A stretch of 64,000 nucleotides of DNA from Phoronis australis (taxonomy: Eukaryota > Animalia > Phoronida), in contig NMRA01000752.1 of NCBI GenBank assembly GCA_002633005.1, positions 102,900 through 166,899 on the forward strand, read 5' to 3'. The translations under genes and the position numbers were made by a program. This document shows, in pieces, positions 15,265-56,900 of this stretch. The notes below the pieces were generated by a model, which saw nothing but the letters and a program-made list of their open reading frames with translations, had not been told where the DNA came from and made no database searches. The stretch's first letter is position 1, and each line of letters opens with the position of its first letter.

Positions 15265-17324
15265 TATGCTAGACCACAAGCCACTTGATCTTCTTTAGCT
15301 GGATCTGCTTGCTTAGCTTCACAGGCAAATAATCCATGTTTTGTGACTACAAAGGCGCGTTTCTGAGCTCAGATAACTGAAATCATAGGTTCATGAGCTG
15401 CAGTTCGTAAGTGCATACGTTGTGTTGTCTGGGTAGCCTTCCTTATCCAGCGATTGTTGAAGGCACACTCTGCAATAAAGACAACAAATTTTAATAACAG
15501 ACGGGTAAAAGCTATCAGTATAAGACAAATAACTTGCTGGATATTTATCGTGCTGTTTATACTACACTGATTTGTAAAACTTCCTGACTTATATCCAGAG
15601 CTTACAAAATAGTCTTCAAACTCAAAATTTAACCAATCACTCTCCAGAATTCAAGTGCAAGACTAGTCTGTAAGTTTACTTCAAGCATGCACTGCAGTGG
15701 GTCAGTTTTCCACATACTGTTTTGAATGAAGTTTTAATCCTGGATTCGCGACTTTCAAAACAATTTTATTCTATATAACTTGAATACAAAACATGCACAT
15801 GGTCACATATCATGCTATTACAATCTAGAACAAATCGTGCATATGATAAAACTTATCATGTTAATAAAAGTTGGATTTCAGGCTAACCAGGTATCGTGTT
15901 CTGTAACTTTTTAGTTCAAGTTCTATGACAAATTAATTAATATTTTTATCAAATGATGAAACTGTTGGCAACTGCAATAACTACAATTAACATTATATTT
16001 ATGAACTTTTCATTATTTTATTCGTTAATCTGATAAGAAAATTCACAACTCTACATAATGAGCAGAGCTAGTTGTATTCTAACTAGCTGTCTCCAGCCAG
16101 CATAGAACTTCTTACTAATGTTTCATGGACATTTAGCCGGCACAACCAGGGTTAGAACTGAAAGTTTAATCTCACATGTATACTTTCGCGTGTACTTTTT
16201 GAAACTTATAGCAAAACCAAGAAGCTGTACATTGACTCTACCAAATGGCTACAAGAATCAGTGAGCTTCTTAAAGATTATAAGCCCATTGGCTAAACCAA
16301 GGACATATTTCATATTGTTTCAAATTCAAACCCTGATAGCAGCACTATTTTTAACTCTTACTCAACAATGAAACATATGAAGCTCTACCTGCCATGTGGA
16401 TGTAGACAGCCCAATTTCACCCCTGGGTGATTGTTTCGATGCAAATGTTTGGCTGTCTAGTTCTTCCAAGTACTCCGCCAAGTTAATAGAGACCTGAAAA
16501 CAATGAGATATTAGCAAACATAACAATAGCTTATAGCTTCTTAAGAATCCAGACATAACCCATTTACAGGGAATTCTATCCGTTTTAGGGGGCCGGGGCC
16601 ATGGCCCCTTAGCTGTCCTCTAAATCCACCATTGGAGATACTGGCATGGTCTTCAGGAGAGGTCTTACGTAACCATAATAGTTTACAGTAAAAATAAAAT
16701 TATCTCATGTACTACAGTGAACATAAAAATAGTATATCCTGTACTCCTACCAATCACTTTACTGGCTGATATTTGCAAAGATATTAAATTGAGGTTCCAA
16801 TCAAATTTGTAGACGGAAATGAATAATAAATGCCCCTACTGACTGTCTAGTCAGTCCATATTCAACTCAACTCCTAGGTAAAGTTGTACCCAGATTAACT
16901 ATCACTTTCACCATGACACTGAAATATTTGCTTTCAATAAAACCATTCAAACTCGCATTGAGTGTGAAAATTTTAAGTGCGACATTCTAGTATTCCACAA
17001 CCTGGTAAAAATTCGAAAGCACATACTCAATCCCAAAGTCAAATCACACAGATTTTCCTTATTTGCATTGAATTATTTGGTGCAATTAGATAGGAATTAT
17101 GCAAGTTTCACTGTGCGTAACAATAGTTAACATCTTGACTGGTGAGAGTTCACTTGGGTACATTGTGACCTATGCCGGGGGTATTCCAGATAGGGTACTA
17201 GTAGTGGGATCGGAATGTCCTTTCGCATTCAATAACCTAGATCCTCCCGACAAATCTGAGCCAATCAGTCAAAATAGGCAATAGAATAGTTACATTGGTG
17301 ATTCCTAATTTTGAGAACCAGGCA

Positions 17325-17560
17325 CATGCACTCACCCAGGGGAAGCTCGAACGAGCACCCCCCACTTGCCGAAGTAGGCATGAAAGGGTCAGCCTCATAG
17401 AAACAAAAAAAATGAGAAAACGAGACACATGTCCACTAAAAAGCTGTAATTCAGGAATGCACTGTGCACAGCTCTGAACATACCCCGTTTTTTTAGTAAA
17501 AGGTCACCATGACCAAAATTTTGAGCACCCCCCATATATTTTAGGATGGGTGCGTGGATG
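17325..17560. mobile_element. MITE with 5-bp TSD (relatives at 37136-37380 and about 43008-43285)
   Basis: Termini CATGCACTCACCC...GGGTGCGTGGATG, flanked by AGGCA/AGGTA. It shares CACAGCTCTGAACATACCCCG with 37284-37304. Confidence 0.6.
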
Positions 17561-17576
17561 AGGTAAGTGAATCTTG

Positions 17577-17811
17577 TGTTGTAATCGGCAACATCATTGG
17601 CCCTTTGTTTTTCCTGTGGCGTCTTGTGATTGGTCTGTTTTTGTGTCTCCTATATAAGTCGTTGGCGCCACTGTCGGACGGGTATTTTTCAAGAACCGGC
17701 AATACGAGTCATCAATGGTTGCTCCACTTGGCGTCAACTGACTGACTGGCTTATATCTTCGTAAAAGTAAGTATTCTTGTGCCTAATCAGTGAACCTGTA
17801 GGAATACAACA
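17577..17811 (+). repeat. 5' LTR (235 bp)
   Basis: TGTTGTA...TACAACA inverted termini, TATATAA at 17651-17657, and a direct repeat of 26640-26886. Confidence 0.95.
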
Positions 17812-17813
17812 TT

Positions 17814-17827
17814 TGGCGTAGTTGGCA
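17814..17827 (+). promoter_or_regulatory. Primer binding site, tRNA-Ser type
   Basis: TGGCGTAGTTGGCA starts 2 nt after the LTR. It matches the complement of the metazoan tRNA-Ser 3' end (TGGCGTAGTCGGCA) with one G:T pair. Confidence 0.8.
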
Positions 17828-18203
17828 CTAGTTAGGGGTACCATAAGAGTATTTAACCGACTAGTTCAGACGGCTTTTACCTGTCCAGGGCTTTTTCTTT
17901 CGTCCGGGGGGAAAGTTGGAAGATTTAGTCGGTGCCGTGCTAACAGGTGGTTAGTACGGTGGCCAAGGGGTTCTTGGTCTTTAGGTAGAGTTGGTTGTAG
18001 GTTGCTTGGGCCTTATTTTTTGGGTTTTTGAGGTTTGTTTTTGGGTTTTTGGGTATTGTTGGGTTTGTTTGCCGGTTCGACTGGGTGTGGTCCCCTTTTT
18101 ACTTAAGTCACGTGGTTGGCAGTGTTTTGGTTATAAACACCGATTCATTCCCTTACCTTTAGCCCTTTTGTAACGGATATATATTGGCCGTTAATAGTCA
18201 ACC

Positions 18204-19781
18204 ATGTCAGTAGGTTTCAAAATTCCTGTTAACTACTGCCGTGAGTCAGACTTGCTAGATTTTCCGGGAGTTGACGAAGATATCGTCCTACAAATAGTTG
18301 ACTTCCGGGAGAGATGCCCTATCGGTCGTCACAATATCTACCAGATATCTGACGATTGGATAGTGACCAGCGCGGTGACTGACCGGGTGGATTATTCCTT
18401 AACCCCCAGTTCAGCTTCCCGAAACTCTGATTTGCCGGCGGGGTTAGCTCAAGTGGCTGACGCTTGCGACAGGCTGAATAGGTCCCCTAGTCCTCGTTTG
18501 GGTAGAACCACTAGATACCAAGTCGATGAGGGTAGGCGCGACAGTGGTATAAGTCCCGGCGTTTATACTCCTCCTAGTAGGCGAAGAGGGTATTCGGGGA
18601 ACATAGGAGGTAGGTATGACAGTGGTCTGGAGCCCGACACTTTTACTTCTCCTGTTCGCCCAAGGGGGTACTGGGCAAATAGAGAGGGAAGGCGCGACAG
18701 AGGCGGAAGTCCCGGCGCAAGAAATGCCAGGGGGTATAAAGTAGATTCGCATGCTCCTCATAATTTAGTTTTCAAGGGCTTGCGTAATACCTGGAAGGAT
18801 TTCCACTGGAAGTTTAGCCGTTTTGCGAGGGAAAACTTCTGGTCCGGGGATAAATGTTTAGCAGAGCTAAGTCTCTGCTGTGAAGGGGATGCACTCCGCT
18901 TTCTTTGTAATTTTACAGAAAGTCGGCCAGACGCATTGTATGACGAAGTAGTAGAAGCAATGAGGAAACGTTTTGGTGTTGCTTCAGGGGTGCCAGGAGT
19001 AGACCAACTACAATTTCACTCCGCATCCCAAAAACAAGCCGAGTCCCTACATCAATGGGCTGACAGGCTGAATCATCTGTATTTTTCGGCCTTTCCAAAC
19101 CCCTCAGATGGTGACCGCCATCAGGCTATACTCAGGTTTTGCTTGGGGTTAAGTGATCAGGATATAGGCAAGCAGGTGTTAAATGGTCGTCCAGAATCCA
19201 TAGACCAAGCACTGGATCTAGCCGTGTGGTTCTCTACGACGAAGGGCCTAATGCCATCGCGTAAGAGTGTTACTTTTAGGGGAGATGAACTGAGCGAGGA
19301 TGTTAGTAGGCTACGTCTCGTCTCTAGTCAGAAAAGGTCGCCCATTAGGTTTTCGCCAATTTCGGGTCGCCAATCCCCACCTGATTCCCCCAACAGTTCT
19401 CCCGGGTCTAGCAACTTAGCAGAGAGGTGCAGAGTGTTAGAGTCACGGGTAGATTTTTTGACAGAGGATAATAAAGCTCTGCATAAACAAATGGACAATC
19501 TGTCCAAAGAAATGAACCAAAATTTCTCTAAAGTTGAAGGTCGTTTTTCTAAAATAGACACCAATTTAGAGAAAATGCTGGGTTTATTAGCCTCGGGCCG
19601 AGCGTCTCCTAGGAAATCACCGTCCAGATCACCCGGCAATTCTCCACGAAAAGCCGGAGAGTGTTTCAACTGTGGGGAGACTGGGCATTATAAATATTCA
19701 TGTCCCAATAAACCATCGGCCAATGTAAGACTAGCCTCAACGTCTCCAGATTGTTTAAACTGGAACGGACTGAAGGACTAG
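18204..19781 (+). CDS. gag: Gag (N-terminal HhH-like motif, capsid region, coiled coil, CCHC zinc knuckle)
   Basis: Intact 525-aa ORF with a major-homology-like QKQAESLHQWADRL segment and the knuckle CFNCGETGHYKYSC. Confidence 0.92.
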   Translation: MSVGFKIPVNYCRESDLLDFPGVDEDIVLQIVDFRERCPIGRHNIYQISDDWIVTSAVTDRVDYSLTPSSASRNSDLPAGLAQVADACDRLNRSPSPRLGRTTRYQVDEGRRDSGISPGVYTPPSRRRGYSGNIGGRYDSGLEPDTFTSPVRPRGYWANREGRRDRGGSPGARNARGYKVDSHAPHNLVFKGLRNTWKDFHWKFSRFARENFWSGDKCLAELSLCCEGDALRFLCNFTESRPDALYDEVVEAMRKRFGVASGVPGVDQLQFHSASQKQAESLHQWADRLNHLYFSAFPNPSDGDRHQAILRFCLGLSDQDIGKQVLNGRPESIDQALDLAVWFSTTKGLMPSRKSVTFRGDELSEDVSRLRLVSSQKRSPIRFSPISGRQSPPDSPNSSPGSSNLAERCRVLESRVDFLTEDNKALHKQMDNLSKEMNQNFSKVEGRFSKIDTNLEKMLGLLASGRASPRKSPSRSPGNSPRKAGECFNCGETGHYKYSCPNKPSANVRLASTSPDCLNWNGLKD

Positions 19782-22700
19782 GTCTAAATTCAGTCCATGA
19801 TTCCCAATCAGGCCTGCCCAAAGATTATTCGACTCTGATTGGTTTGGTGGGAGGGATCAAAAATCAGTTAAAACGTGCAAATAAAAGAACCAAGAAAACT
19901 GTTCGTTCCACGGGGGTTGGGACGGATTCCGAAGATTCTTTCTCACTAGCAGATTCCGACAGTGATTCTAATCCGGGTTCTCTTGCTAGTAAGGATACGT
20001 TGACTGTAGATCCACCTATCAAGTCAGATCTAGATCGAGCGACTCCGAATGTAGAACGGACCGACTCTGATTCAATAAAATCATCGCCGGAGGTAGTAAA
20101 CATATGTAAACTATCTTCAGGTCGTACGTATTATATTCCCATAGAGTTGAAGGGTTTGAGGTTAAATAGTATCCTGGATAGTGGTGCCGATCGTATTGTA
20201 ATTTCTACCAGGGTATCTAAATTTCTCTCGGGCGTCCAAGCCGTGCACGAGGTAAAGGTGACAACGGCCGCCGAAGGTCTGGCTCTTGGGGGGTTCAGAA
20301 CCAATAACATTCCCATTACTATTAATTCCAAAACATATCGAACCTCACTGATAGTTTCGGATATTCAGGACGATTGCCTCTTGGGGTAAGATATCATGAA
20401 ACAATTGGGATGTGTTCTGAACATGAAAGAGGATAAACTGACTATTGAGGGGAAAACAATTCCAATGGAATACGGTAACCCATCCAGATATCTTCCTCCC
20501 GTTGTAGTGAACTCAAATGTTTCAATTCCTGCCAATACGGTGAAGAGGTTAAGTGGGATCGAATTTCCAAAGATTGCCCCCATGGTTATGTTTGATCCAT
20601 CGCCATCTCTAGATCCACGTTTTTCGATACCCCGCTCAATACATGACCCCCAATCCTGTTCTTCCCTTTTTGTTTTCAATTCATCGGAACATGGGGTAAG
20701 ATTAACAGGAGGGACTATCTTAGGGGTAGTGGAACCCGTGGAATCTGAAGGGGTAAAAGATACTCAGGTTCGGGAACACTGCTCAGTTAAGGTAGCTAAA
20801 TCAAAGGAAACTCCTGGGGGTGTTGAGACACTGTCGGGGTGATTACCAAGGCGAACTCCTGGGAATGTTAATGCACTTTCGGGAGGTTTACCAAAAAAGC
20901 TAACTTCGCTGTTTGACCAATCTTCAATTCATTTAAGTGAGGGGGAAAAGTCACAGTTGAAGAAGCTATTGTTAGAATTTGAAGATGTGTTCGCTGCCAG
21001 TGATTTGGATCTAGGAAATTTTACGAAAGTAGAGCATGTCATAGACACCGGGACAGCAAAACCTATTAAAATGGGTATGCGCCGGACGCCAGCCTGTTTT
21101 GTGCAGGAAGAGGATAATCTAAAGAAAATGTTAAATGCAGGAATAATTGTCCCCTCTATGAGTGACTGGGCCGCAGCACCTGTGTTAATCCGAAAGGCTG
21201 ACGGGACAGTGCGTTACTGTATTGACTACAGGGCGTTAAATAGTGTTACCCAAAAAGATGCATGGCCTTTACCATTAATTGAACAATGTATAGACCTTCT
21301 TGCTGGAAATGTTTGGTTTAGTAAGTTAGATGCAAATTCTGCTTATTGGCAAATCAAAATCCGTGAGGAGGACCGTAAAAAAACTGCATTCATTACAAAA
21401 TATGGTTTGTACGAGTTTCGCTCTATGCCTTTTGGTTTATGTGGAGCTCCTAGTACATTTTCTCGGGCCATGAGTCTGGTTTTACGAGGCTTGAACTGGA
21501 ACACGGTATTGGCGTTTCTAGACGACATATTAGTGTTGGGTATCAGTTTCGAGGACCACCGGTCTAATCTTACAGGCGTTCTTGCTCGTTTTCGGGAGTT
21601 CGGCCTGAGATTGAAACCCAGAAAGTGCGCCCTATTTCAAAAGAAAGTAGAATTTCTGGGTAGGACGGTGGGTCCGGAAGGGTTGGAGATGGGAAATGAC
21701 AACATTAAGAAAGTCTAAGAATGGTCTATTCCCCATAGTAAGAAACAGTGTCAAAGTTTCTTGGGTTTTGCAAATTACCATAGGCTATTCATCAAAGATT
21801 TTGCAAAATTAGCTGTACTTCTTTATGAGGTTACAGGGTCGAAGAAAACCTTTCAGTGGGACGACGCACAACAGAATGCTTTCGATCAATTAAAGGTAGC
21901 TCTAACAACACCACCTGTTTTAGCCTTTCCGAATAAAAATGACGAATTTATTCTTGATTGTGACGCCTCTGATAATGCTATTGGCTGTTGTCTTTCCCAA
22001 GTCCAGAACGGGTTGGAGCGAGTTATCTCGTACTCCAGCTTCGCTTTAGTGGACGAACAAAAACGTTATTGTACTACTCGGAAGGAGCTGCTGGCTGTTG
22101 TACGATTTACACACCAGTTCAGGCATTACATCTTGGGTAGGAAATTTAAAGTACGGACGGATCACAGTAGTTTGAGATGGCTTTTAAACTTCAAATCTCC
22201 TTTGGGACAATTAGCTCGTTGGATATTACAGTTACAGCAGTTTTCGGGTATGGAAATAATATACCGTCCCGGAGTTAAACATATCAATGCTGATGCTTTG
22301 TCACGTATTCCTTCGTCCTCCTGCCCGGCGTACAAGCTAGGGGTAGAACCCAAAGACCTTCCTTGTGGGGGTTGTCCCACTTGTTGCAAATGTCATAAGG
22401 AATGGTATAATTTCGTACAGGAAGTTGACGACACTATCCCTCTTGCACAACGCCCCCGGGCAGTTATGGTTGACAAAAGTACCAATACCCGTGCGCGATC
22501 TGTGTATGTGTCTGATGCGCACCAACACTCTCTGTTGGATAGTCAAAACGTTGCAGAAGAGTTTATCCCTGACGACTTGGGTGAGGAGGGGTTTGCATTA
22601 ACTATATGTAATCCCGAGTTGACGGATGTCCCTTGTATGGATGACTGTTTCCTAATCTCCATAGATAGAGAGGATCGAAATCCTTGTTTTGTGAGAGCAT

Positions 22701-24221
22701 TGTCAATAGAGAATGAAACAGACTTTGACCGCAAGCAGAGGGAGGACACAAATCTGACTTTCCTATTTGACTGGTTAGATAATGGTGTTGAACCTTCACA
22801 ATTCCGCTTGTTTATCGCCAGCGCTACGGCCAAATACTGTTGGCTCAATAGGGAGCGGTTTGTTGTGTCGAATAATCTATTATATTGGAAGGCTCCAGAT
22901 GAGGAAGATATTCTAAAACTAGTAGTGCCCGAGTCCTGCAAGTCAGATATTATAAAGCATTGTCATGACTTACCGTCCGCAGGTCACCAGGGAATTGACC
23001 GTACCAAAGCAAAGTTGAAAGCTAAGTATTATTGGCGTGGTATGGCCGCAAGTGTAAAATCTTATATTGAAACATGTGCTGCCTGTAATTTAAATAAGCA
23101 AGGTAGAGGCCGCCATGGTAAGTTTCCCTTAACTACATTCCATGCAGGGGTGCCCATGGAACGCGTCCATTTAGATTTCCTGGGTCCACTCCCTATATCC
23201 GATCAGGGCAATGAATATATCCTCATGATGGTAGACCAGTTTACCAAGTGGGTGGAATGTGTAGCCCTTCCGTCGCAGACGGCAGAGGTCACGGCGAACG
23301 CTGCACTGGACCAGTTCTTTAGTAGATTTGGGTTCCCACTGCAGTTGTTTACCGATCAGGGACGAAATTTTGAAAGTCACTTGTTCCGTCATATTTGTTC
23401 CCTTTTGAAAATCCAGAAAACAAGAACGACTGCGTATAGGCCCTCTTCTAACGGACAATGTAAGCGATTCAATCGTACCCTGATGGATGCAATACGTTGT
23501 TATGTCAGTCGTTTCCAAACTGATTGGGATATGTATTTACCCCAAATTGCTGGTGCTATCCGGTCTTGTGTTAATCGTCATACTGGCTTTACAGCTAATA
23601 AAATGATGTTGGGTCGGGAAATCATTCAGCCAGTAGACCTCATGTATCCACCGCCCTTACAGGATGCTGAGGACCCCATAGGTTATGTAAACTGGCTCTG
23701 TAAAGCGATTACTCAAACTCACGAGATAGCTAGAGGAACATTGCAGACTGCCCAAGCTGTTACGCGATTATGATGTGTCTATGGTCAAACGTTCATATAC
23801 ATGTAGTGTTGGAGATTTAGTCTATGCCCTTGATTCAGCTAGCGTTAAGGGGAAGTGTAAAAAACTATTACCCCCTTGGAAAGGGCCGGCCATTGTTCTC
23901 GAGGTCATTACTCCTTATCTATTTCGAATTAGACACGAGAATTTTGTGTCGGTAGTCAATCATGACCGTCTGAAACTCTGTAAGGATAGGTTTCAGGACC
24001 TACCTATCTGGCTTAAGGGAATGATCCAGGTAAATTCCACAGTGAACCGGGATAGTCTAGCAGAAGACACCGAAGTATACTGTTTTTGTAGGAGACCTGA
24101 TCATGGCGGGTTCATGATTGCTTGTGACGTATGTGATGAGTGGTATCATGGGGAATGTGTAAGCATTACCACTGATGACGCACTGCACATTGACCGGTAC
24201 ATCTGTCCTAGTTGTGAATAA
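19751..24221 (+). pseudogene. pol: pol: protease, RT, RNase H, integrase and C-terminal PHD finger (3 in-frame stops, 1 frameshift)
   Basis: Motifs ILDSGAD; CIDYRALN, MPFGL, FLDDIL; DCDASD, TDH; H..GH..CAAC, LDF, TDQG; WKGP; PHD. Stops end at 20389, 20842 and 21718, and the frame shifts near 23773. Confidence 0.93.
19754..19816 (+). promoter_or_regulatory. -1 programmed ribosomal frameshift signal
   Basis: T TTA AAC heptamer in the gag frame, a 6-nt spacer, then the stem GGACTGAA/TTCAGTCC. pol is in the -1 frame. Confidence 0.8.
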
Positions 24222-24243
24222 CATGGGCTTTGCAATATTTCAG

Positions 24244-24873
24244 ATGTTTCGATGTACCGATGTGAGGTTAAAGACTAATCCGGACTTACCTTGCATTACC
24301 GACGTCCCAAGTGAGCGGGAGGACTCTACGCAGCCACCGCCTCAACCAAGGGAGGAAGATCAATCCCCGGTGCAAGAGGTGTCCGTGATAGCAGCAAATA
24401 CGGGGGAATCAGACATCGACGAGTCTGTCTTAGACGACGACCCGGTCGTAATGGTCTCACCCCCACGGCCTATTAATGTAAATGTGCCCCTGTCAACCCC
24501 CGCAGATTTTCTGACCAGTCCTTCGTCCCCTATGATGGTAGATTCTGCGGTAGTGTCAACAGGTTCCGCAACTACGCCGCTGGCTTCGCTTGGTGAGTCT
24601 ATTTGGGCCCTTCCCGAATACTCCCACGGAGTGCAGATGGCAGAAGCCTTGTTACAACCCACTGATCAATATCAGTGTCCCCTGTGCCCCTTTACCATTC
24701 CTCTCGGTGAAGATGAAATGTTGTGCAAACATATTTTCACATGTCATCTGCCACCCTTGTTTTCAACTAACCAAGCTGACGTGGTTGCCAGCCCTCAGCT
24801 TCATCGAGAGAGATACGACTCTTTGGCCTATCTTTTTTCATTGTTGGAGGGACGTAGCATGAAAACTCGTTAG
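24244..24873 (+). CDS. ORF3 N-terminal part: acidic/Pro-Ser-rich region plus C2H2-like finger
   Basis: ATG directly follows a TTTCAG acceptor-like site, and the ORF contains CPLC-x14-HIFTCH. Probably once joined to the TatD ORF (frameshift near 24870). Confidence 0.55.
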   Translation: MFRCTDVRLKTNPDLPCITDVPSEREDSTQPPPQPREEDQSPVQEVSVIAANTGESDIDESVLDDDPVVMVSPPRPINVNVPLSTPADFLTSPSSPMMVDSAVVSTGSATTPLASLGESIWALPEYSHGVQMAEALLQPTDQYQCPLCPFTIPLGEDEMLCKHIFTCHLPPLFSTNQADVVASPQLHRERYDSLAYLFSLLEGRSMKTR

Positions 24874-24878
24874 ATCTT

Positions 24879-26300
24879 GTGGACAGGTGTAACCTGGTAT
24901 GCCGGGGCTTGAGCCAGCTGCCACGGGTACTCCCCCTTGATCAGATGGCGATGTCGGTAATGTCTACCACATTTGGCTGGGACAGAGTTCCGAGTTTCAC
25001 GTTAACACCTAGACTCAACTCGCCAGCCGCCTGCTTCCACTGGTATGTGATCACTCTTCTGCTCCAAAAATTACCTGAGAGTGACCGTGAGCGATGGTTT
25101 GTAAGTGCACATAATGTGAGGCTCCCTCAGTCCTTCTTGGACTCCTCGTCCGGAGAGGTCGGGCCAACGTCCTTTATAACCCCCAGGCCTCAGACCTCTA
25201 CTTCAGCCACTTCACCCCCCAAAAGACCTCGGACTTATGCCCAGGTTGCTTCCTGTCCTGAGGCTCAGTCTGCACTGCTCCCTCCTGTACCATCCAAGTC
25301 CCAAGTGGAGCGTAAACAGGTTCGTCCAAAGCGGTCGGCGGCGGCAACCACCTCCTCGGCGAAACGATCCGCTAAACTGCCATCTTTGTACGGTCCACAG
25401 TCGACCGCCAATCTGCAGCCTGCTGCATCAGCCCCAAAGCCAGAGGCAGTGGATTCGCATTTCCACCTAGATCGGCTGACCTTCGCGTGCCAACGGTTTT
25501 CCCCCGAATTGGCCGGCCGGCTGCTTACCATCCCTGAGATCACGAATATGACGGCCATGCTCCCTTGCCCCTCAAAAAATCCAGTCCATTTAACAGGGGG
25601 CATAGCGGTATTTTGTGATCCGATTCACTATAAGTTTGTGGAGAAATCCACTGAGGCGTTCCCTTCGGGTTGGAAGACTGCCATAGGCATCCACCCGAAA
25701 AACGCCAAGTCGTACAATCCGGCCATGGAGAAGGAGATTTTCAGGCTCCTCCGGTTGCCCAACGTTGTTGTGCTAGGTGAGTTGGGATTAGAAGAAGGCC
25801 ACGGTTGCGTTGAAGTACAGCAGCGAGTAGTCGTGTCGCTGGTGCGCGGTCTTGCCCGCTTCCAGACGGTTCACGGCACTCGTGTGCTTGTATTGCACCT
25901 TTGCTCCCGGGAGTCCACTTCACCCTTTCACTCTGGTCATCAGTACATGAGACGGTTGCTGAGTGACGTTCTGCCCAGAGCCCAACCAATCCATCTCCAT
26001 TGTTTTTCCAGTAATCCCCAGGAGGTGCGATCATGGATGAAGGCTTTCCCAAATGCCTATTTCGGCTTTGCTGCCACTGCTCGCCACTTTTCCTCTCCCC
26101 AAGCTAAAGCTTTGGCAGCCGTGCCCCTTAATCGGCTTCTTTTAGAGACCGATTCCCCCCATTTAGCGACGTCCTCTCGACCTATGGCCCCATATTTCAT
26201 TAAGGAAGTGGCCTGGAAAATAGCACGCCTGCGTCACTGTAATGCTGACTATTTATTGGAGCACTCGGCCAAGAACGCATGTGTTTTATACCGATTGTAA
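24879..26300 (+). CDS. tatD-like: TatD-family metal-dependent DNase domain protein (TatD domain about 25449-26297)
   Basis: Ordered TatD motifs VDSHFHLD, AIGIHP, LGELGLE, LVLH, IHLHCF, YFGF and VPLNRLLLETDSP in an uninterrupted 473-aa frame. Confidence 0.92.
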   Translation: MDRCNLVCRGLSQLPRVLPLDQMAMSVMSTTFGWDRVPSFTLTPRLNSPAACFHWYVITLLLQKLPESDRERWFVSAHNVRLPQSFLDSSSGEVGPTSFITPRPQTSTSATSPPKRPRTYAQVASCPEAQSALLPPVPSKSQVERKQVRPKRSAAATTSSAKRSAKLPSLYGPQSTANLQPAASAPKPEAVDSHFHLDRLTFACQRFSPELAGRLLTIPEITNMTAMLPCPSKNPVHLTGGIAVFCDPIHYKFVEKSTEAFPSGWKTAIGIHPKNAKSYNPAMEKEIFRLLRLPNVVVLGELGLEEGHGCVEVQQRVVVSLVRGLARFQTVHGTRVLVLHLCSRESTSPFHSGHQYMRRLLSDVLPRAQPIHLHCFSSNPQEVRSWMKAFPNAYFGFAATARHFSSPQAKALAAVPLNRLLLETDSPHLATSSRPMAPYFIKEVAWKIARLRHCNADYLLEHSAKNACVLYRL

Positions 26301-26625
26301 GTCCGGAGAGCGTCTCTAGTGAGTATTTCTACCACTAGGTGTCTGCTCTCCCATCCAGGGGGGTGGGTGGTTCCCCATAAGGGTGACTATTTATTATTTA
26401 TTTCATGTGTTCAGGGGTGCTGGCTCTTTGAACTTATATATTATTTGATGATACTTCTGTTCTTAACCCATGTGTATTATGCTCTCATTCTAGGGGAACT
26501 GTCCGTGTGCTACTAACATACTGAAGTTTCTTCTTTTTTGGAGGGGGGAGGAGGATCAAAATTTTTCGGGTGTTTTTTGATAAATTGGCAATGATGTTGT
26601 TTCCCGGGTGGGTCCCACGCTTTTT

Positions 26626-26639
26626 AGGGAGGAGGGGAA
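26626..26639 (+). promoter_or_regulatory. Polypurine tract
   Basis: AGGGAGGAGGGGAA lies immediately before the 3' LTR. Confidence 0.9.
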
Positions 26640-26886
26640 TGTTGTAATAGGCAACATCATTGGCCCTTTGTTTTTCCTGTGGCGTCTTGTGATTGGTCTG
26701 TTTCTGTGTGTTCCCCGTATGTCTCCTATATAAGTCGTTGGCGCCACTGTCGGACGGGTTTTTTCAAGAACCGGCAATACGAGTCATCAATGGTTGCTCC
26801 ACTTGGCGTCAACTGACTGACTGGCTTATATCTTCGTAAAAGTAAGTACTCTTGTGCCTAACCAGTGAACCTGTAGGAATACAACA
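26640..26886 (+). repeat. 3' LTR (247 bp)
   Basis: Copy of 17577-17811 with about 5 substitutions and one 12-bp indel. Confidence 0.95.
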
Positions 26887-27539
26887 TTTGGCGTAGTTGG
26901 CACAAATTATTGACCTGTAGTGATATGAGATTTCAAAATCAGGAGCTTCCAAGAATTACTACGAACATAGACATAAGCACACACAACCAATGCCAGTATA
27001 CCCAACTTGGGAAATGTTTACACTTTGCCTTGGTAGTCCCCCCCCCCCTTGCATTGATCACACTGACACAACCTCAGAAGACAGAAATATAATAGAGTAA
27101 ATTATAGCCTTATGTGAACGTTATGGCTTCCTCTGATGGACCTCCAGGTGTATATTACGCGTTAGAAGTTTAGATAATTCACACACAGAATGAGTCCATG
27201 TCGGTATGTGACAGCGTGACTCGTTAGTGGCTGACAATAACAGCTGAACTTAACACGTTCGATGGAAATCACACCACCGATTGTGGCCAATCGATTTTAG
27301 AACGCTCTCTGGCACTAACCTGACTTCCAAAACTTGTGAAATGTCTTCTTGCTCGCTCTGCTCGTAGTAATATTAACTTCATTGTCGCGGGCTAGCCACC
27401 ACACGACTTTTTTTCGAAGTTGACTGTCGTTATAAAATTCAAACTGATGACTTCCGGTGGAAACTGCCTTACGAATACAACTCAACACAGAGGAAACTTG
27501 CACAATAACTACGTTTTTTAAGAATTGCATGAGTTCTAT

Positions 27540-52458: not shown

Positions 52459-52585
52459 TTTGGGGGCTAGTCAAGGAGAGTTAAATAAAGGTTTACGTGG
52501 TTGTGTTGAATTGTTTTGAATCCTGTAATTACTGTTTGAATATTAATTAATAAAGTGCATTCTGGGAATAAACCCTTCCTTTCAA

Positions 52586-53905
52586 ATGGATTTTGAAAAG
52601 TATATTGCGCAAGCGAAACAATTCGGTTATACCGGTTTAGAGTTAAGGAAGTGCGCAGAGGAGCTCTTGCGGCAGGCCTCGGAACGTGAAGAGCGCGCCC
52701 ACAAACGAGAGCTGGAAAAGGCAGAGCTTGCACGGGAACAAGCAGAGCGGGCCCAAGCGATTGAGATTGAGAAGCAGAAGACACTGCAACTCCAGATTGA
52801 GATCAAAGCGACACCTAGTGGTGGGGCTCCAAGCAGTGGTGTGCGTACCAGCCGTCCAATACTGCCAAGGTTCGACGAGCGCGTCGAAGACATGGATGCC
52901 TTCCTAGACAGATTTGAGACGTTCGCCACAAGCCAGAAATGGGATAAATCGGAGTGGGCTGTGGACTTGAGTCCATTGTTGACAGGTAAAGGCCTGCAGG
53001 TGTTCAACAACATGCCGTCCGACCAAATTAACAACTATGACCAACTAAAGGTGGCGCTGCTGCACAGGTATGAATTAACCGAAGATGGGTTCCGACGAAA
53101 GTTTAGAGAGTCCAAGCCTGAAAAGGGTGAAAACGTGTTCCAATTCGGGGCAAGACTGAAAAGGTTCTTTGACCGATGGACACAACTGGCGGAGGTCGAG
53201 GTGACTTATGATGGACTCAGATACTTACTGATCCGAGAACAGTTTCTGGGAGTATGCCATCCTGAGATGTCCGTATTCCTGAGGGAACGGAAACCGAAGA
53301 CCTTCGACGAGATGTCGGCCATTGCTCAACAGTACATGGACGCCAACTGTACTGGTTTGTTGGGCAAAGGGTGCGCAAAGAAAGACTTGCGACAGGTAGC
53401 CAGAAGACAGATACCGCCAAGCAACACAGAAGAACGATGGACAGAAACTCCTCGTTCGTCAGTGACCAGAAACAAGGGTGACAAAGAGTGTTTCAATTGT
53501 CATCGGAAAGGTCATCTAGCAAGGGACTGTGGAATGAAAGACTTCCACTCCAAAAGATTCGCTGCAGGTAAGCAGTCGTCGGCCTCGCAGCAGGAACGGG
53601 CCAAGACAGAAGACACCAAGAAGTCGGTAATGTGTCAAGCTGTGGTAGCAAAGGGTAGTCCAATAGAACAGCACATAGTTGATGGCTGTCTGAAATTAGT
53701 CGATGGGACATCAATGCCAGTAGAGAGAGGGGCCTGTGACAAGCACAGAGAGCCTCCCGCTGACCACAACATGCCCGTTTGTGACGGTTACGTCAACGAA
53801 ACAAAAGTACGCATGATGCGTGACACCGGATGCAGTGGTGCAGCGGTGAAGACGTTCCTAGTCAAAGAAAGTCAACTGACGGGGAACAACACATCTGTGT
53901 GTTAA
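52586..53905 (+). CDS. gag: Gag (SCAN-related capsid, CCHC knuckle) and start of protease
   Basis: Motifs YELTEDGFRRKFR, LIREQFL, CFNCHRKGHLARDC and MRDTGCS. Confidence 0.9.
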   Translation: MDFEKYIAQAKQFGYTGLELRKCAEELLRQASEREERAHKRELEKAELAREQAERAQAIEIEKQKTLQLQIEIKATPSGGAPSSGVRTSRPILPRFDERVEDMDAFLDRFETFATSQKWDKSEWAVDLSPLLTGKGLQVFNNMPSDQINNYDQLKVALLHRYELTEDGFRRKFRESKPEKGENVFQFGARLKRFFDRWTQLAEVEVTYDGLRYLLIREQFLGVCHPEMSVFLRERKPKTFDEMSAIAQQYMDANCTGLLGKGCAKKDLRQVARRQIPPSNTEERWTETPRSSVTRNKGDKECFNCHRKGHLARDCGMKDFHSKRFAAGKQSSASQQERAKTEDTKKSVMCQAVVAKGSPIEQHIVDGCLKLVDGTSMPVERGACDKHREPPADHNMPVCDGYVNETKVRMMRDTGCSGAAVKTFLVKESQLTGNNTSVC

Positions 53906-56900
53906 TAGATGGGACAGCACGATCCTTCCCCATAGCGAAGATTGGGGTAGACACTCCATACTTCGTTTGTGAAATCGAGGCAATGTGTATGCGAACACCG
54001 ATATACGACCTCATCATAGGGAATGCTGTTGGCGTCAGCAAGGGTCTTGATCCAAATTGGCAGCCACAAGGCAGTGTCATGTCCACAGTCACTACTAGAG
54101 CACAGGCTAAGAAGAGAGAGAAACCTATTAAGACTTTGGCGGTGACTCCATCCGGAGTGGAAAGTCTCCACGTCAGCAAATTGAAGGACGAGCAACAATA
54201 TGATCCTTCCCTGCGTAAGCTCATGGAACTTATTGAGAAAGACAATCCAGCAAGAACACGTGGTAGAGGTCAATACTGGTATGAGAAGCAGAAGGGAGTC
54301 CTGTACCGAGTGTGTGCTGATAACACCAAAGAATTGCGTCAGATAGTTGTCCCTGTCAAATATCGACAACAGGTTATGACGCTAGCTCACGAGTCAATCG
54401 TAAGTGGGCACCTTGGTGTGAAGAAGACCAGTGATAGAATAGCCAGTAGCTTTTATTTGCCAGGAGTTGTCAGTGACACAAATCGTTTCTGCAGATCATG
54501 TGGCATCTGCCACCGAACAACTCTTAAGGGCATGATCTCTAAAGTGCCATTGTGTGAGATGCCACTTATGGAAGAACCGTTCCAGCGTATCGCTGTTGAT
54601 TTGATTGGTCCTGTGTCGCCAATCACAGACAGAGGCAACCGGTACATTCTTACCATCGTAGACTATGCCACAAGATACCCGGAGGCAGTCCCTCTACCAA
54701 GAATAGAAGCTGAGCGAGTTGCAGAAGCACTGTTTGAAACCTTCTGTAGACTTGGCTTTCCACGAGAGGTGCTTAGTGACTGTGGAACAGAAGTTCTGAA
54801 GGAAGTTGCACGGCTAATATCCATGAAGCAACTGTTCACCACTCCGTACAATCCGAAATGCATTGGATTTTGTGAGCGTATTAATGGTGTACTGAAGAGT
54901 ATGCTTAAGAAAATGTGCCAAGAGCGTCCACAAGACTGGGACCGGTACTTACCAGCAGTACTGTTCGCCTACAGACAGGTACCACAAGTGAGCACAGGTT
55001 TCTCGCCATTTGAACTGTTGTATGGTAGAACCGTGCGAGGGCCCATGCAGGTGCTTAAAGAGTTTTGGACAGGCAATGAAACACCAGACGTACGGAATAC
55101 TTATGAGTATGTCCTCGACTTGCGGCATCGTCTGGAAGAGACATGTGAACTGGTGCGGGAAAACNTCTCGCCATTTGAACTGTTGTATGGTAGAACCGTG
55201 CGAGGGCCCATGCAGGTGCTTAAAGAGTTTTGGACAGGCAACGAAACACCAGACGTACGGAATACTTATGAGTATGTCCTCGACTTGCGGCATCGTCTGG
55301 AAGAGACATGTGAACTGGTGCGGGAAAACTTACGAAATGCTGGTGAAGCATACAAGCACCATTATGACAAAAAGACACGAAATCGTCGCTTCAAAGTGGG
55401 AGACCAAGTCTTAACATTGTTACCAACTGACAGTAACAAGCTGCTACTGCAGTGGAGGGGTCCCTATGAAGTGACCGAGGTACTCAACAAAATGGACTAC
55501 CGAGTAAGGGTTGGTAGAAAAACCATGACATACCATGCTAACCTGTTGAAACTCTACATATCTCGTGACCAAAGTGGGGCTGCAAGTAATGATGATACAG
55601 ATCAGAATTCTGACATCGCAGCCATAGATGTACTTCAGCCTGAAATGGACAATGAAGTTGGTGTTGTCGATGATGAACATCTACTAGTGCTGGGATCGAC
55701 AAACCAAAAAGAAACGTACAAAGATGTCAAGATACCAGACGAGCTCACTACTAGCCAACGAAGGGAGGTGATAAGTCTACCAGGAGGGTACTCTGACATC
55801 TTTAGTGAAGTACCAGGTACGACACATCTGGTGGAGCACAAGATTGAGACCATCAGTGAAGAACCGGTGAGAGTCAAGCCGTATCCCCTGCCATATGCCA
55901 CACGGTCGGTTGTGCAGGAGGAAATTGACAACATGTTAAAGTGTGGAGTCATAGAACCATCCGATGCTCCCTATAACTCTCCGGTGGTATTAGTGAAGAA
56001 GATGGACGGTTCAAATCGATTCTGCATCGATTTTCGTCCTTTGAACTCCATCACCAAGTTCGACTTGGAACCGATGGGCAATCCTGATGACATCATGGCT
56101 AAGATCAGTAAAGACCAGTTTTTTATGAAGATTGATCTAAGTAAAGAATACTGGTAAGTCATTGTCGCCGAAGAATCGCGGACCAAGACCTCGTTTGTAG
56201 TACCAAGTGGCTGCTACAAGTTCGTAAAGATGCCATTTTGTCTGGTAAATTCGGCAGCGACCTTCAACCGCATGAGGAAGATGTTGGCAGGAGCACATAA
56301 TACAGAACATTATGTGGATGACATTCTGTGCCATAATAAGACCTGGACTGAACACCTTGCCACCTTGCGAGACACCTTCCAACGTGCGCGAGAAGCTGGA
56401 CTAACGATTCGACTCACCAAGTGTTCGGTTGGATCTCGTTCCGTCGATTTCGTTGGACATGTGGTCGGTGAAGGGCACCTGGCAATGGATGAAGAAAGTT
56501 TGAGACGCATCCGAGATGCACCACGACAAAGAACGAAGAAACAAGTTCGTACTTTTCTTGGGTTGGCTGGCTAATACAGGAAGTTCATCCTAAACTTCGC
56601 TGAAATCGCCGTCCCATTTACTGAGCTCACAAAGAAGAAACAGCCTAACAACGTGCAGTGGGAAGAAAAAGCTCAGCAGCATGCATTTGACACTCTTCGA
56701 GACCTGCTGACGAGGGTCCCCATACTGAGATTACTTGATTTCAGTAAATCTTTTATTGTTCAGACTGATGCGTCAGATACTGGAATAGGCTGTATTTTGT
56801 TGCAGGAGTATGATGATGGCAGGTTCCCAGTAGCATGTGCTTGTAAGAAATTGTTACCTTGGGAACGGAATTACTCAGTCATAGAGAGGGAATGTTTGGC

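Follow-up and report, generated by a model that had tools for sequence, protein, structure and literature searches.

Do a helix-hairpin-helix (HhH) domain in Gag, a PHD finger in Pol and a TatD nuclease mark a single lineage of retrotransposons when they are found in one element, and do they work together? This question is raised by an element of the phoronid Phoronis australis, which lies around positions 17577 to 26886 of a 64,000-nt stretch of contig NMRA01000752.1 (assembly GCA_002633005.1, positions 102,900 to 166,899 of the forward strand; hereafter the window). A preliminary description of this DNA proposed that the three modules define a distinct Gypsy lineage and act together. Our results showed that HhH, PHD and TatD almost certainly mark one Gypsy lineage, while the idea of a joint machine was weakened.

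The element has the structure of a Ty3/Gypsy retrotransposon: direct long terminal repeats (LTRs) of the TG...CA type, a primer-binding site (PBS), a polypurine tract, and gag followed by protease, reverse transcriptase (RT) and RNase H, then integrase. In addition, its RT nests among elements with the Gypsy domain order, in a tree without named reference elements. A TatD profile gave 164 loci, mostly bacterial; of the 160 loci from scans of metagenomes and genomes (8-9 of 64 parts of each), the majority were bacterial TatD. The five TatD loci with pol matches all had the order integrase, SH3-like part, PHD, TatD. One of these five lies in a metagenome-assembled genome (MAG), G001, which had 150 RT matches. 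From it 100 contigs were taken: 88 followed the ranking of the RT matches, approximately from the top down, and 12 were chosen for TatD. Domains were mapped with profiles, many contigs being too short to score. The RT-RNase H tree comprised 90 rows: 15 of the window's clade, 8 of its sister group and 67 others, with no named Gypsy references.

The clade of 15 was well supported (0.998 in FastTree with 90 rows; 99.8 in IQ-TREE with 37 rows by the Shimodaira-Hasegawa-like approximate likelihood ratio test). All assessable members carried the modules (HhH 13/13, PHD 9/9, TatD 9/9), and none was found in the 67 rows outside the clade and its sister group (HhH 0/21, PHD 0/42, TatD 0/11). Thus, the modules nest in one RT clade and are not scattered over unrelated elements, as the preliminary description had expected of a distinct lineage. 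The window element and two others (L003 and L006) were found via TatD; the six judgeable members from G001 were selected by RT similarity alone, and these six contigs, which are long enough to score, all have both PHD and TatD. Furthermore, a second MAG yielded a complete element with all three modules (L310), and altogether 10 contigs from 4 assemblies have the three modules on one contig in the same domain order. A diagnostic RT motif, by which the lineage can be recognised, was present in 15/15 clade members and in 0/75 other rows. No clade member was found among viral contigs. The GTDB label of G001 is Sedimenticola, its RT matches lie mostly in long open frames, and it has 44 PHD matches; the ORF3 domain was detected in only 2/251 genomes of its family. 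G001 probably contains much retroelement DNA of an animal host that was binned with a symbiont.

The sister group of 8 showed a different pattern: HhH in 3/3, PHD in 0/3 and TatD in some. Within it, L209 is complete and has HhH and TatD without PHD, and L207 is complete and has HhH alone; the next outgroup, L210, is complete with none of the three. HhH is therefore the most widely distributed module, followed by the third open reading frame (ORF3, which carries TatD) and then PHD. In the sister group HhH is present, TatD occurs in some elements and PHD is always missing, so the modules were gained stepwise and are separable. The simplest history is that HhH came first, then ORF3, and PHD last, with loss of ORF3 in L207 as a possible alternative to its primary absence. 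The modules need not form one machine, because relatives lack one or two of them, and this weakens the earlier proposal that the three work together. The lineage thus keeps a stepwise record of three captures, and the sister elements without PHD or TatD are natural controls.

The PHD finger (24081-24215; Pfam PHD 2e-11) forms the integrase C-terminus and is of the CXXC1/BPTF/PHF8 type. Its closest solved structures are those of CXXC1, BPTF, PHF8, PHF2 and DIDO, whose PHD fingers we take to be readers of trimethylated lysine 4 of histone H3 (H3K4me3). The C4HC3 ligands are present, and the positions presumed to form the cage (Y/F, M and W) are kept in 18/18 scorable stretches, 18 of 19 stretches being scorable. 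On these residues, the finger quite probably reads methylated H3K4. As for Gag, 10 of 12 aligned N-termini match HHH_3. The N-terminus of the window copy (18222-18401) is divergent: it has no Pfam match and is without a glycine kept by the others, and for its model ComEA was the best structural match (probability 0.92, template modelling score 0.60), with an E value of 0.36 that is not significant alone. The Gag N-terminus resembles the ComEA/EEPD1 HhH (PF12836) in sequence family and predicted fold, here on a retrotransposon Gag, and no report of HhH on such a Gag was found in the literature. The biochemical labels given to this element before (DNA-binding Gag, histone-reader PHD, nuclease) fit the ligands, the cage positions and the HHH_3 matches, and we use them as putative.

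The TatD domain (25449-26291; Pfam 1.8e-27) occupies the end of ORF3. Its metal ligands, the two HxH histidines followed by E, H, H and D, make the group II signature, and nearly all stretches retain them (27 or 28 of 28); in the available part of PMC10085689, HxH defines group II, with TATDN2, TATDN3, YcfH and YjjV. The ratio of nonsynonymous to synonymous substitutions was 0.13-0.22 in 6 measurable pairs, which are not independent, indicating purifying selection. Distances of TatD and integrase were correlated among 14 elements (Spearman 0.74; the distances are not independent), and the two trees have 7/11 splits in common. Judging by the ligands, the TatD of ORF3 is very likely an active nuclease. 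By profile it scored 128 bits with YcfH, 56 with TATDN3 and 53 with TATDN1. The window TatD has 57 homologue matches, 9 of them named (oysters, pearl oyster, abalone, sea slugs, zebra mussel and sea urchin), and public annotations label the homologues as ordinary TatD genes. Retrotransposon ORF3s probably account for many of the genes that carry a 'TatD' annotation in molluscs, sea urchins and symbiont MAGs. Fused pol-TatD proteins were absent among 7320 candidates of 1447-4130 aa, which is weak evidence, the length window having been set by the alignment.

The tree that placed the element TatDs drew on 145 proteins found with P0043 as the query; 10 of these were looked up, and three clusters bear the name TATDN2. 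The element TatDs formed one clade (0.938), and this clade was joined with the TATDN2 group (0.972) against 39/41 bacterial rows. They are sister to animal TATDN2 and not nested in it, with long branches. The other two bacterial TatD rows, L064 and L086 (labelled Fibrobacteria), stood inside the TATDN2 side; this may reflect genes acquired from eukaryotes or an artefact of the tree. The placement makes it likely that the element TatD was captured long ago from the TATDN2 line. According to the available part of PMC10711561, human TATDN2 breaks down RNA, both in hairpins and in the RNA strand of R-loops, and is reported to spare DNA. ORF3 shares with animal TATDN2 a C-terminal TatD after a long low-complexity N-terminus, HxH and all metal ligands. 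Unlike TATDN2, it is intronless, multicopy and element-borne, with about 30-35% identity even among elements.

Upstream of TatD lies a zinc-finger helical domain of 150 residues, which is absent from 148/150 TATDN2-side proteins; its helical part was found in 30/57 homologues. Its model was confident (predicted local distance difference test 92.5), and it had no Pfam family and no fold match (best Z 3.1), which does not by itself prove a new fold. The Atlas search gave generic TatD clusters only. The lineage thus offers a 150-residue domain with a confident fold and no known match, and also a divergent TATDN2-like nuclease family with many naturally open frames. On L005 (242-4016), 142-nt direct repeats and a purine tract surround a zinc-finger TatD frame of 593 aa, with neither gag nor pol detected; it is perhaps a non-autonomous element with ORF3 only. 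In addition, a legend in the available part of PMC6962438 shows a 'TATDN2' annotated in the Hox cluster of the giant squid, next to genes whose names derive from transposons, and this 'TATDN2' might be such an ORF3.

How is ORF3 expressed? A pyrimidine tract, an acceptor AG (24242-24243) and the ORF3 ATG (24244) stand together at 24228-24246, after the pol stop. Such a tract with AG and a near ATG was seen in 14/19 PHD stretches, compared with 9/40 TatD-less elements and 731/4800 random windows (15%). We mapped about 18% of each of three RNA runs with the same species label from one study (including X5, X6 and X7). In one direction, the mean depth over 24243-26639 was 8.7, 6.2 and 2.7, against 0.4, 0.8 and 0.6 over gag-pol (means taken by hand). 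ORF3-region RNA was thus about 22-, 8- and 4-fold deeper than gag-pol on one strand, and the depth of X7 jumped from 0.7 to 11.6 at the acceptor. Provided that the libraries follow the usual stranded protocol, the ORF3-biased reads are sense. A separate ORF3 message is well supported by this step, and it is reasonably likely that this message is spliced.

Our preferred reading of the element is as follows. Gag-Pol would be produced by a predicted -1 frameshift, the HhH domain would let Gag grip DNA, and the PHD finger would tether integrase, with integration favouring H3K4-methylated chromatin. The ORF3 nuclease would be made from a spliced subgenomic RNA and act in trans in the nucleus, where it may destroy structured RNA, or the RNA of RNA:DNA hybrids, that would restrain the element. 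Taken as a whole, this mechanism (frameshift, PHD tether, HhH grip and trans-acting RNA-clearing nuclease) seems to us just on the probable side of even, and the RNA-clearing role of the nuclease, by itself, falls somewhat short of even. A bolder form of it is that an old, widespread Gypsy branch of molluscs and echinoderms captured a TATDN2 ancestor, fused it to the zinc-finger domain, gave it its own message and uses it to clear R-loops at the H3K4me3-bearing active chromatin that PHD-integrase chooses. We regard this as unlikely; if true, this would be the first R-loop resolvase known to be encoded by a retrotransposon, and one coupled to targeting by histone marks.

Several points weigh against this reading. 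First, the modules are separable (L207 and L209), and most tree rows come from one MAG. Second, the window copy was inserted in a high-copy repeat and not in an evident promoter. Third, the kinship with TATDN2 is a sister position only, the branches are long, and the proteins of the TATDN2 set were selected for their resemblance to a single protein. DNA and abasic (AP) sites are cut by other TatDs (PMC10085689, in part). Moreover, TatD is not needed as a substitute for RNase H, because the catalytic residues of RNase H are visibly intact. Fourth, the splice sites reported in the preliminary description exist as sequence, but no spliced read is listed in the DNA/RNA read mapping, despite a depth of 11 at the acceptor in X7, and ORF3 RNA may originate from an internal promoter. 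In X5 and X6, reads on the opposite strand equal or nearly equal these in number. Finally, the RNA runs are from one study, with reads from other copies that are mostly 90-99% alike.

The main competing explanation is that TatD acts on the cDNA of the element or on the integration site, trimming 3' ends or leftover primers or cutting AP sites, in a particle or intasome with DNA-binding Gag. The 3' exonuclease and AP endonuclease activity of TATDN1, TATDN3, TatD and YcfH on DNA (PMC10085689, in part) would suit this role, whereas TATDN2, the nearest cellular group, is reported to spare DNA (PMC10711561, in part). TatD has so far been found only in elements of the HhH group; however, L207 is complete with HhH and has no TatD. 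The kept PBS and the missing duplication of the window copy (see below) reveal that the processing of ends can go wrong in this family, while the large excess of ORF3 RNA over gag-pol RNA on that strand suits a host-facing role. On balance, we consider cDNA processing doubtful, although it has some plausibility. It is also conceivable, if improbable, that ORF3 is a silencing suppressor or a weapon against competitors, degrading small RNAs, antisense RNA or the nucleic acids of rivals; the helical domain would bind a host protein, and hybrids would not be the target. Indirectly, the separate and abundant ORF3 RNA, the opposite-strand reads over pol, the conserved and confidently folded domain without known match, and the silencing role suggested for the DEDDy ORF3 of rotifers (PMC5408684, in the part available) all agree with it. 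That the TatD gene merely rides along, or that the locus is chimeric and combines a Gypsy element with some unrelated host gene, is barely credible and was rejected for the architecture: neither one contig nor one long read covers the element from end to end, and relatives are annotated publicly as ordinary TatD genes, but the domain order shared by contigs of four assemblies, purifying selection, the TatD-integrase co-phylogeny, the even DNA depth across all 30 bins and deletion derivatives that join RT to PHD and integrase to ORF3 are all against it.

Compared with known systems, a close parallel in design is Juno/Vesta of bdelloid rotifers. As far as the available part of PMC5408684 describes them, these elements also have an enzymatic, non-env ORF3 in the env slot, a 3' nuclease with catalytic residues intact and function unproven. 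However, their ORF3 is a DEDDy 3'-5' exonuclease, and that of the present lineage is an unrelated TatD TIM barrel with a zinc-finger helical domain. Unlike in Juno/Vesta, ORF3 here goes together with PHD-integrase and HhH-Gag and has diverged alongside pol across a deep clade. Chromoviruses and CopiaMBD elements also have a chromatin reader at the integrase end and a proposed steering of insertion (PMC6673714, in part), and the same source notes PHD fingers in many retrotransposons. In contrast to these, the reader of our lineage is a PHD of H3K4me3 type, which would point to active and not silent chromatin; the Pfam match is to PHD, with no chromodomain match at E 0.1. By its sequence, the lineage may offer a natural integrase with an active-chromatin reader.

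The third comparison is with errantiviruses (Drosophila gypsy and its env-carrying relatives), whose env is made from a spliced message. In Pfam, the ORF3 of the window matches TatD only, and by that measure it is not an env ORF. In the available part of PMC13524379, errantiviruses resemble the lineage in three ORFs, a -1 frameshift site and an acceptor before ORF3. Unlike theirs, ORF3 encodes a putative nuclease and not an envelope protein. The text of PMC13524379 makes no mention of PHD or TatD. In a mollusc survey (PMC6238403), with the named Gypsy clades C, AB, CsRN1, Cigr-1 and MolGy1-16, PHD or TatD was absent from the text and readable supplements, and the RT motif of the clade was absent from the readable supplements, which give names and accessions; that survey may well have assigned such RTs to a MolGy clade while leaving the added modules unmentioned. 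No description of the lineage was found in the literature, Repbase, most subscription journals and preprint supplements being outside the search. New here are the way in which HhH, TatD and PHD nest in the tree, the kinship with TATDN2, the domain without a match and the step in RNA depth.

The anatomy of the window copy, all on the forward strand, agrees with the preliminary description for the LTRs, PBS, polypurine tract, slippery site, gag, pol-PHD and ORF3-TatD, which are present at about the positions given there. The 5' LTR (17577-17811, 235 nt, TG...CA; left end set by the empty-site joint at 17576) contains a TATA box (17651-17657) and a donor-like GTAAGT (17767-17772). The PBS (17814-17827), which we presume to be tRNA-Ser-like, follows on its 3' side. 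The open gag (18204-19781, 525 aa) comprises the N-terminal HhH-like domain, a capsid-like core, a coiled coil and a CCHC knuckle at its end (19659-19709, Pfam zf-CCHC). A slippery heptamer (19754-19760), divided by the gag frame as T TTA AAC, precedes the -1 frame of pol, and the TTTAAAC site occurs in 10/14 assessable clade members. The broken pol (19712-24221) contains a protease with a Pfam match, RT (21188-21667, Pfam RVT_1 1e-31), RNase H (21857-22243, Pfam 1e-31), a Cys/His motif (about 22325-22450), integrase (22925-23443, Pfam integrase H2C2 and rve), the SH3-like part and PHD. ORF3 is in two pieces: the first (24244-24873) has a low-complexity region and the C2H2-type zinc finger (24676-24750), and the second (24858-26300) has the rest of the helical domain, a linker and TatD. 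The polypurine tract (26626-26639) and the 3' LTR (26640-26886, 247 nt) complete the element. A dUTPase-like match after the protease was weak (E 0.035) and was found by profile in no relative, and it was dropped. The Cys/His motif between RNase H and integrase is conserved in 38 stretches that spread beyond the HhH group, and it probably binds zinc.

The PBS was variable. The exact window PBS was in 0/294 loci, and relatives have other PBS sequences; it was not found in the eLife PBS supplement, and no tRNA gene was found within the 64-kb window. PBS sequences vary widely among the leaders of L196, L198, L199, L201, L202, L205, L207 and L213. A donor-like GT[AG]AGT stands 10-80 nt upstream of the PBS in the window and in 5 of these 8 leaders.

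The window copy is dead. Pol has three in-frame stops (20387, 20840 and 21716), and the integrase catalytic position is Lys (23462-23464), unlike the 17 other stretches compared, so the stops and the E-to-K change reported before are confirmed. The frame is also broken near 23730-23773 in pol and near 24858-24873 in ORF3, between the zinc finger and the remainder; RNA reads from other copies mostly lack the ORF3 break in 2/3 runs. The LTRs are nearly identical (divergence about 1.7%), although we counted 4 substitutions and two indels (13 nt and 1 nt) and not about five substitutions and one indel as given earlier. The right end also had to be moved. In reads and one DNA contig of the empty site, position 26903 comes straight after 17576 and the two sides share no letters, and because of this joint the inserted unit reaches 26902 without a target-site duplication, which is not the usual outcome of insertion by integrase, where 4-6 bp of target are duplicated and the element ends at the CA of its LTR. 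Past the 3' LTR, where the preliminary description ended the element and where other copies do end (26886), the unit holds a 16-nt spacer and PBS copy (26887-26902). This tail ends in CA, and the insertion is at a palindrome, TTG/CAA. We infer incomplete primer removal, the cDNA having been integrated with its primer end kept. No relatives with both LTRs plus flanks were found.

The insertion target is a high-copy, transcribed repeat (17000-17576 and 26903-27500), with DNA depth of 430-960 against 18-72 in the element. Internal-deletion derivatives were seen in DNA with joints 21366/23973, 23318/25124 and 19242/19441, and the 23318/25124 form is also present in RNA reads. Elsewhere in the window, a second LTR-type element (52547-56154) has a SCAN-like gag and an integrase early in pol, which we take to be Gmr1-like, and an RT fragment lies at 717-1370.

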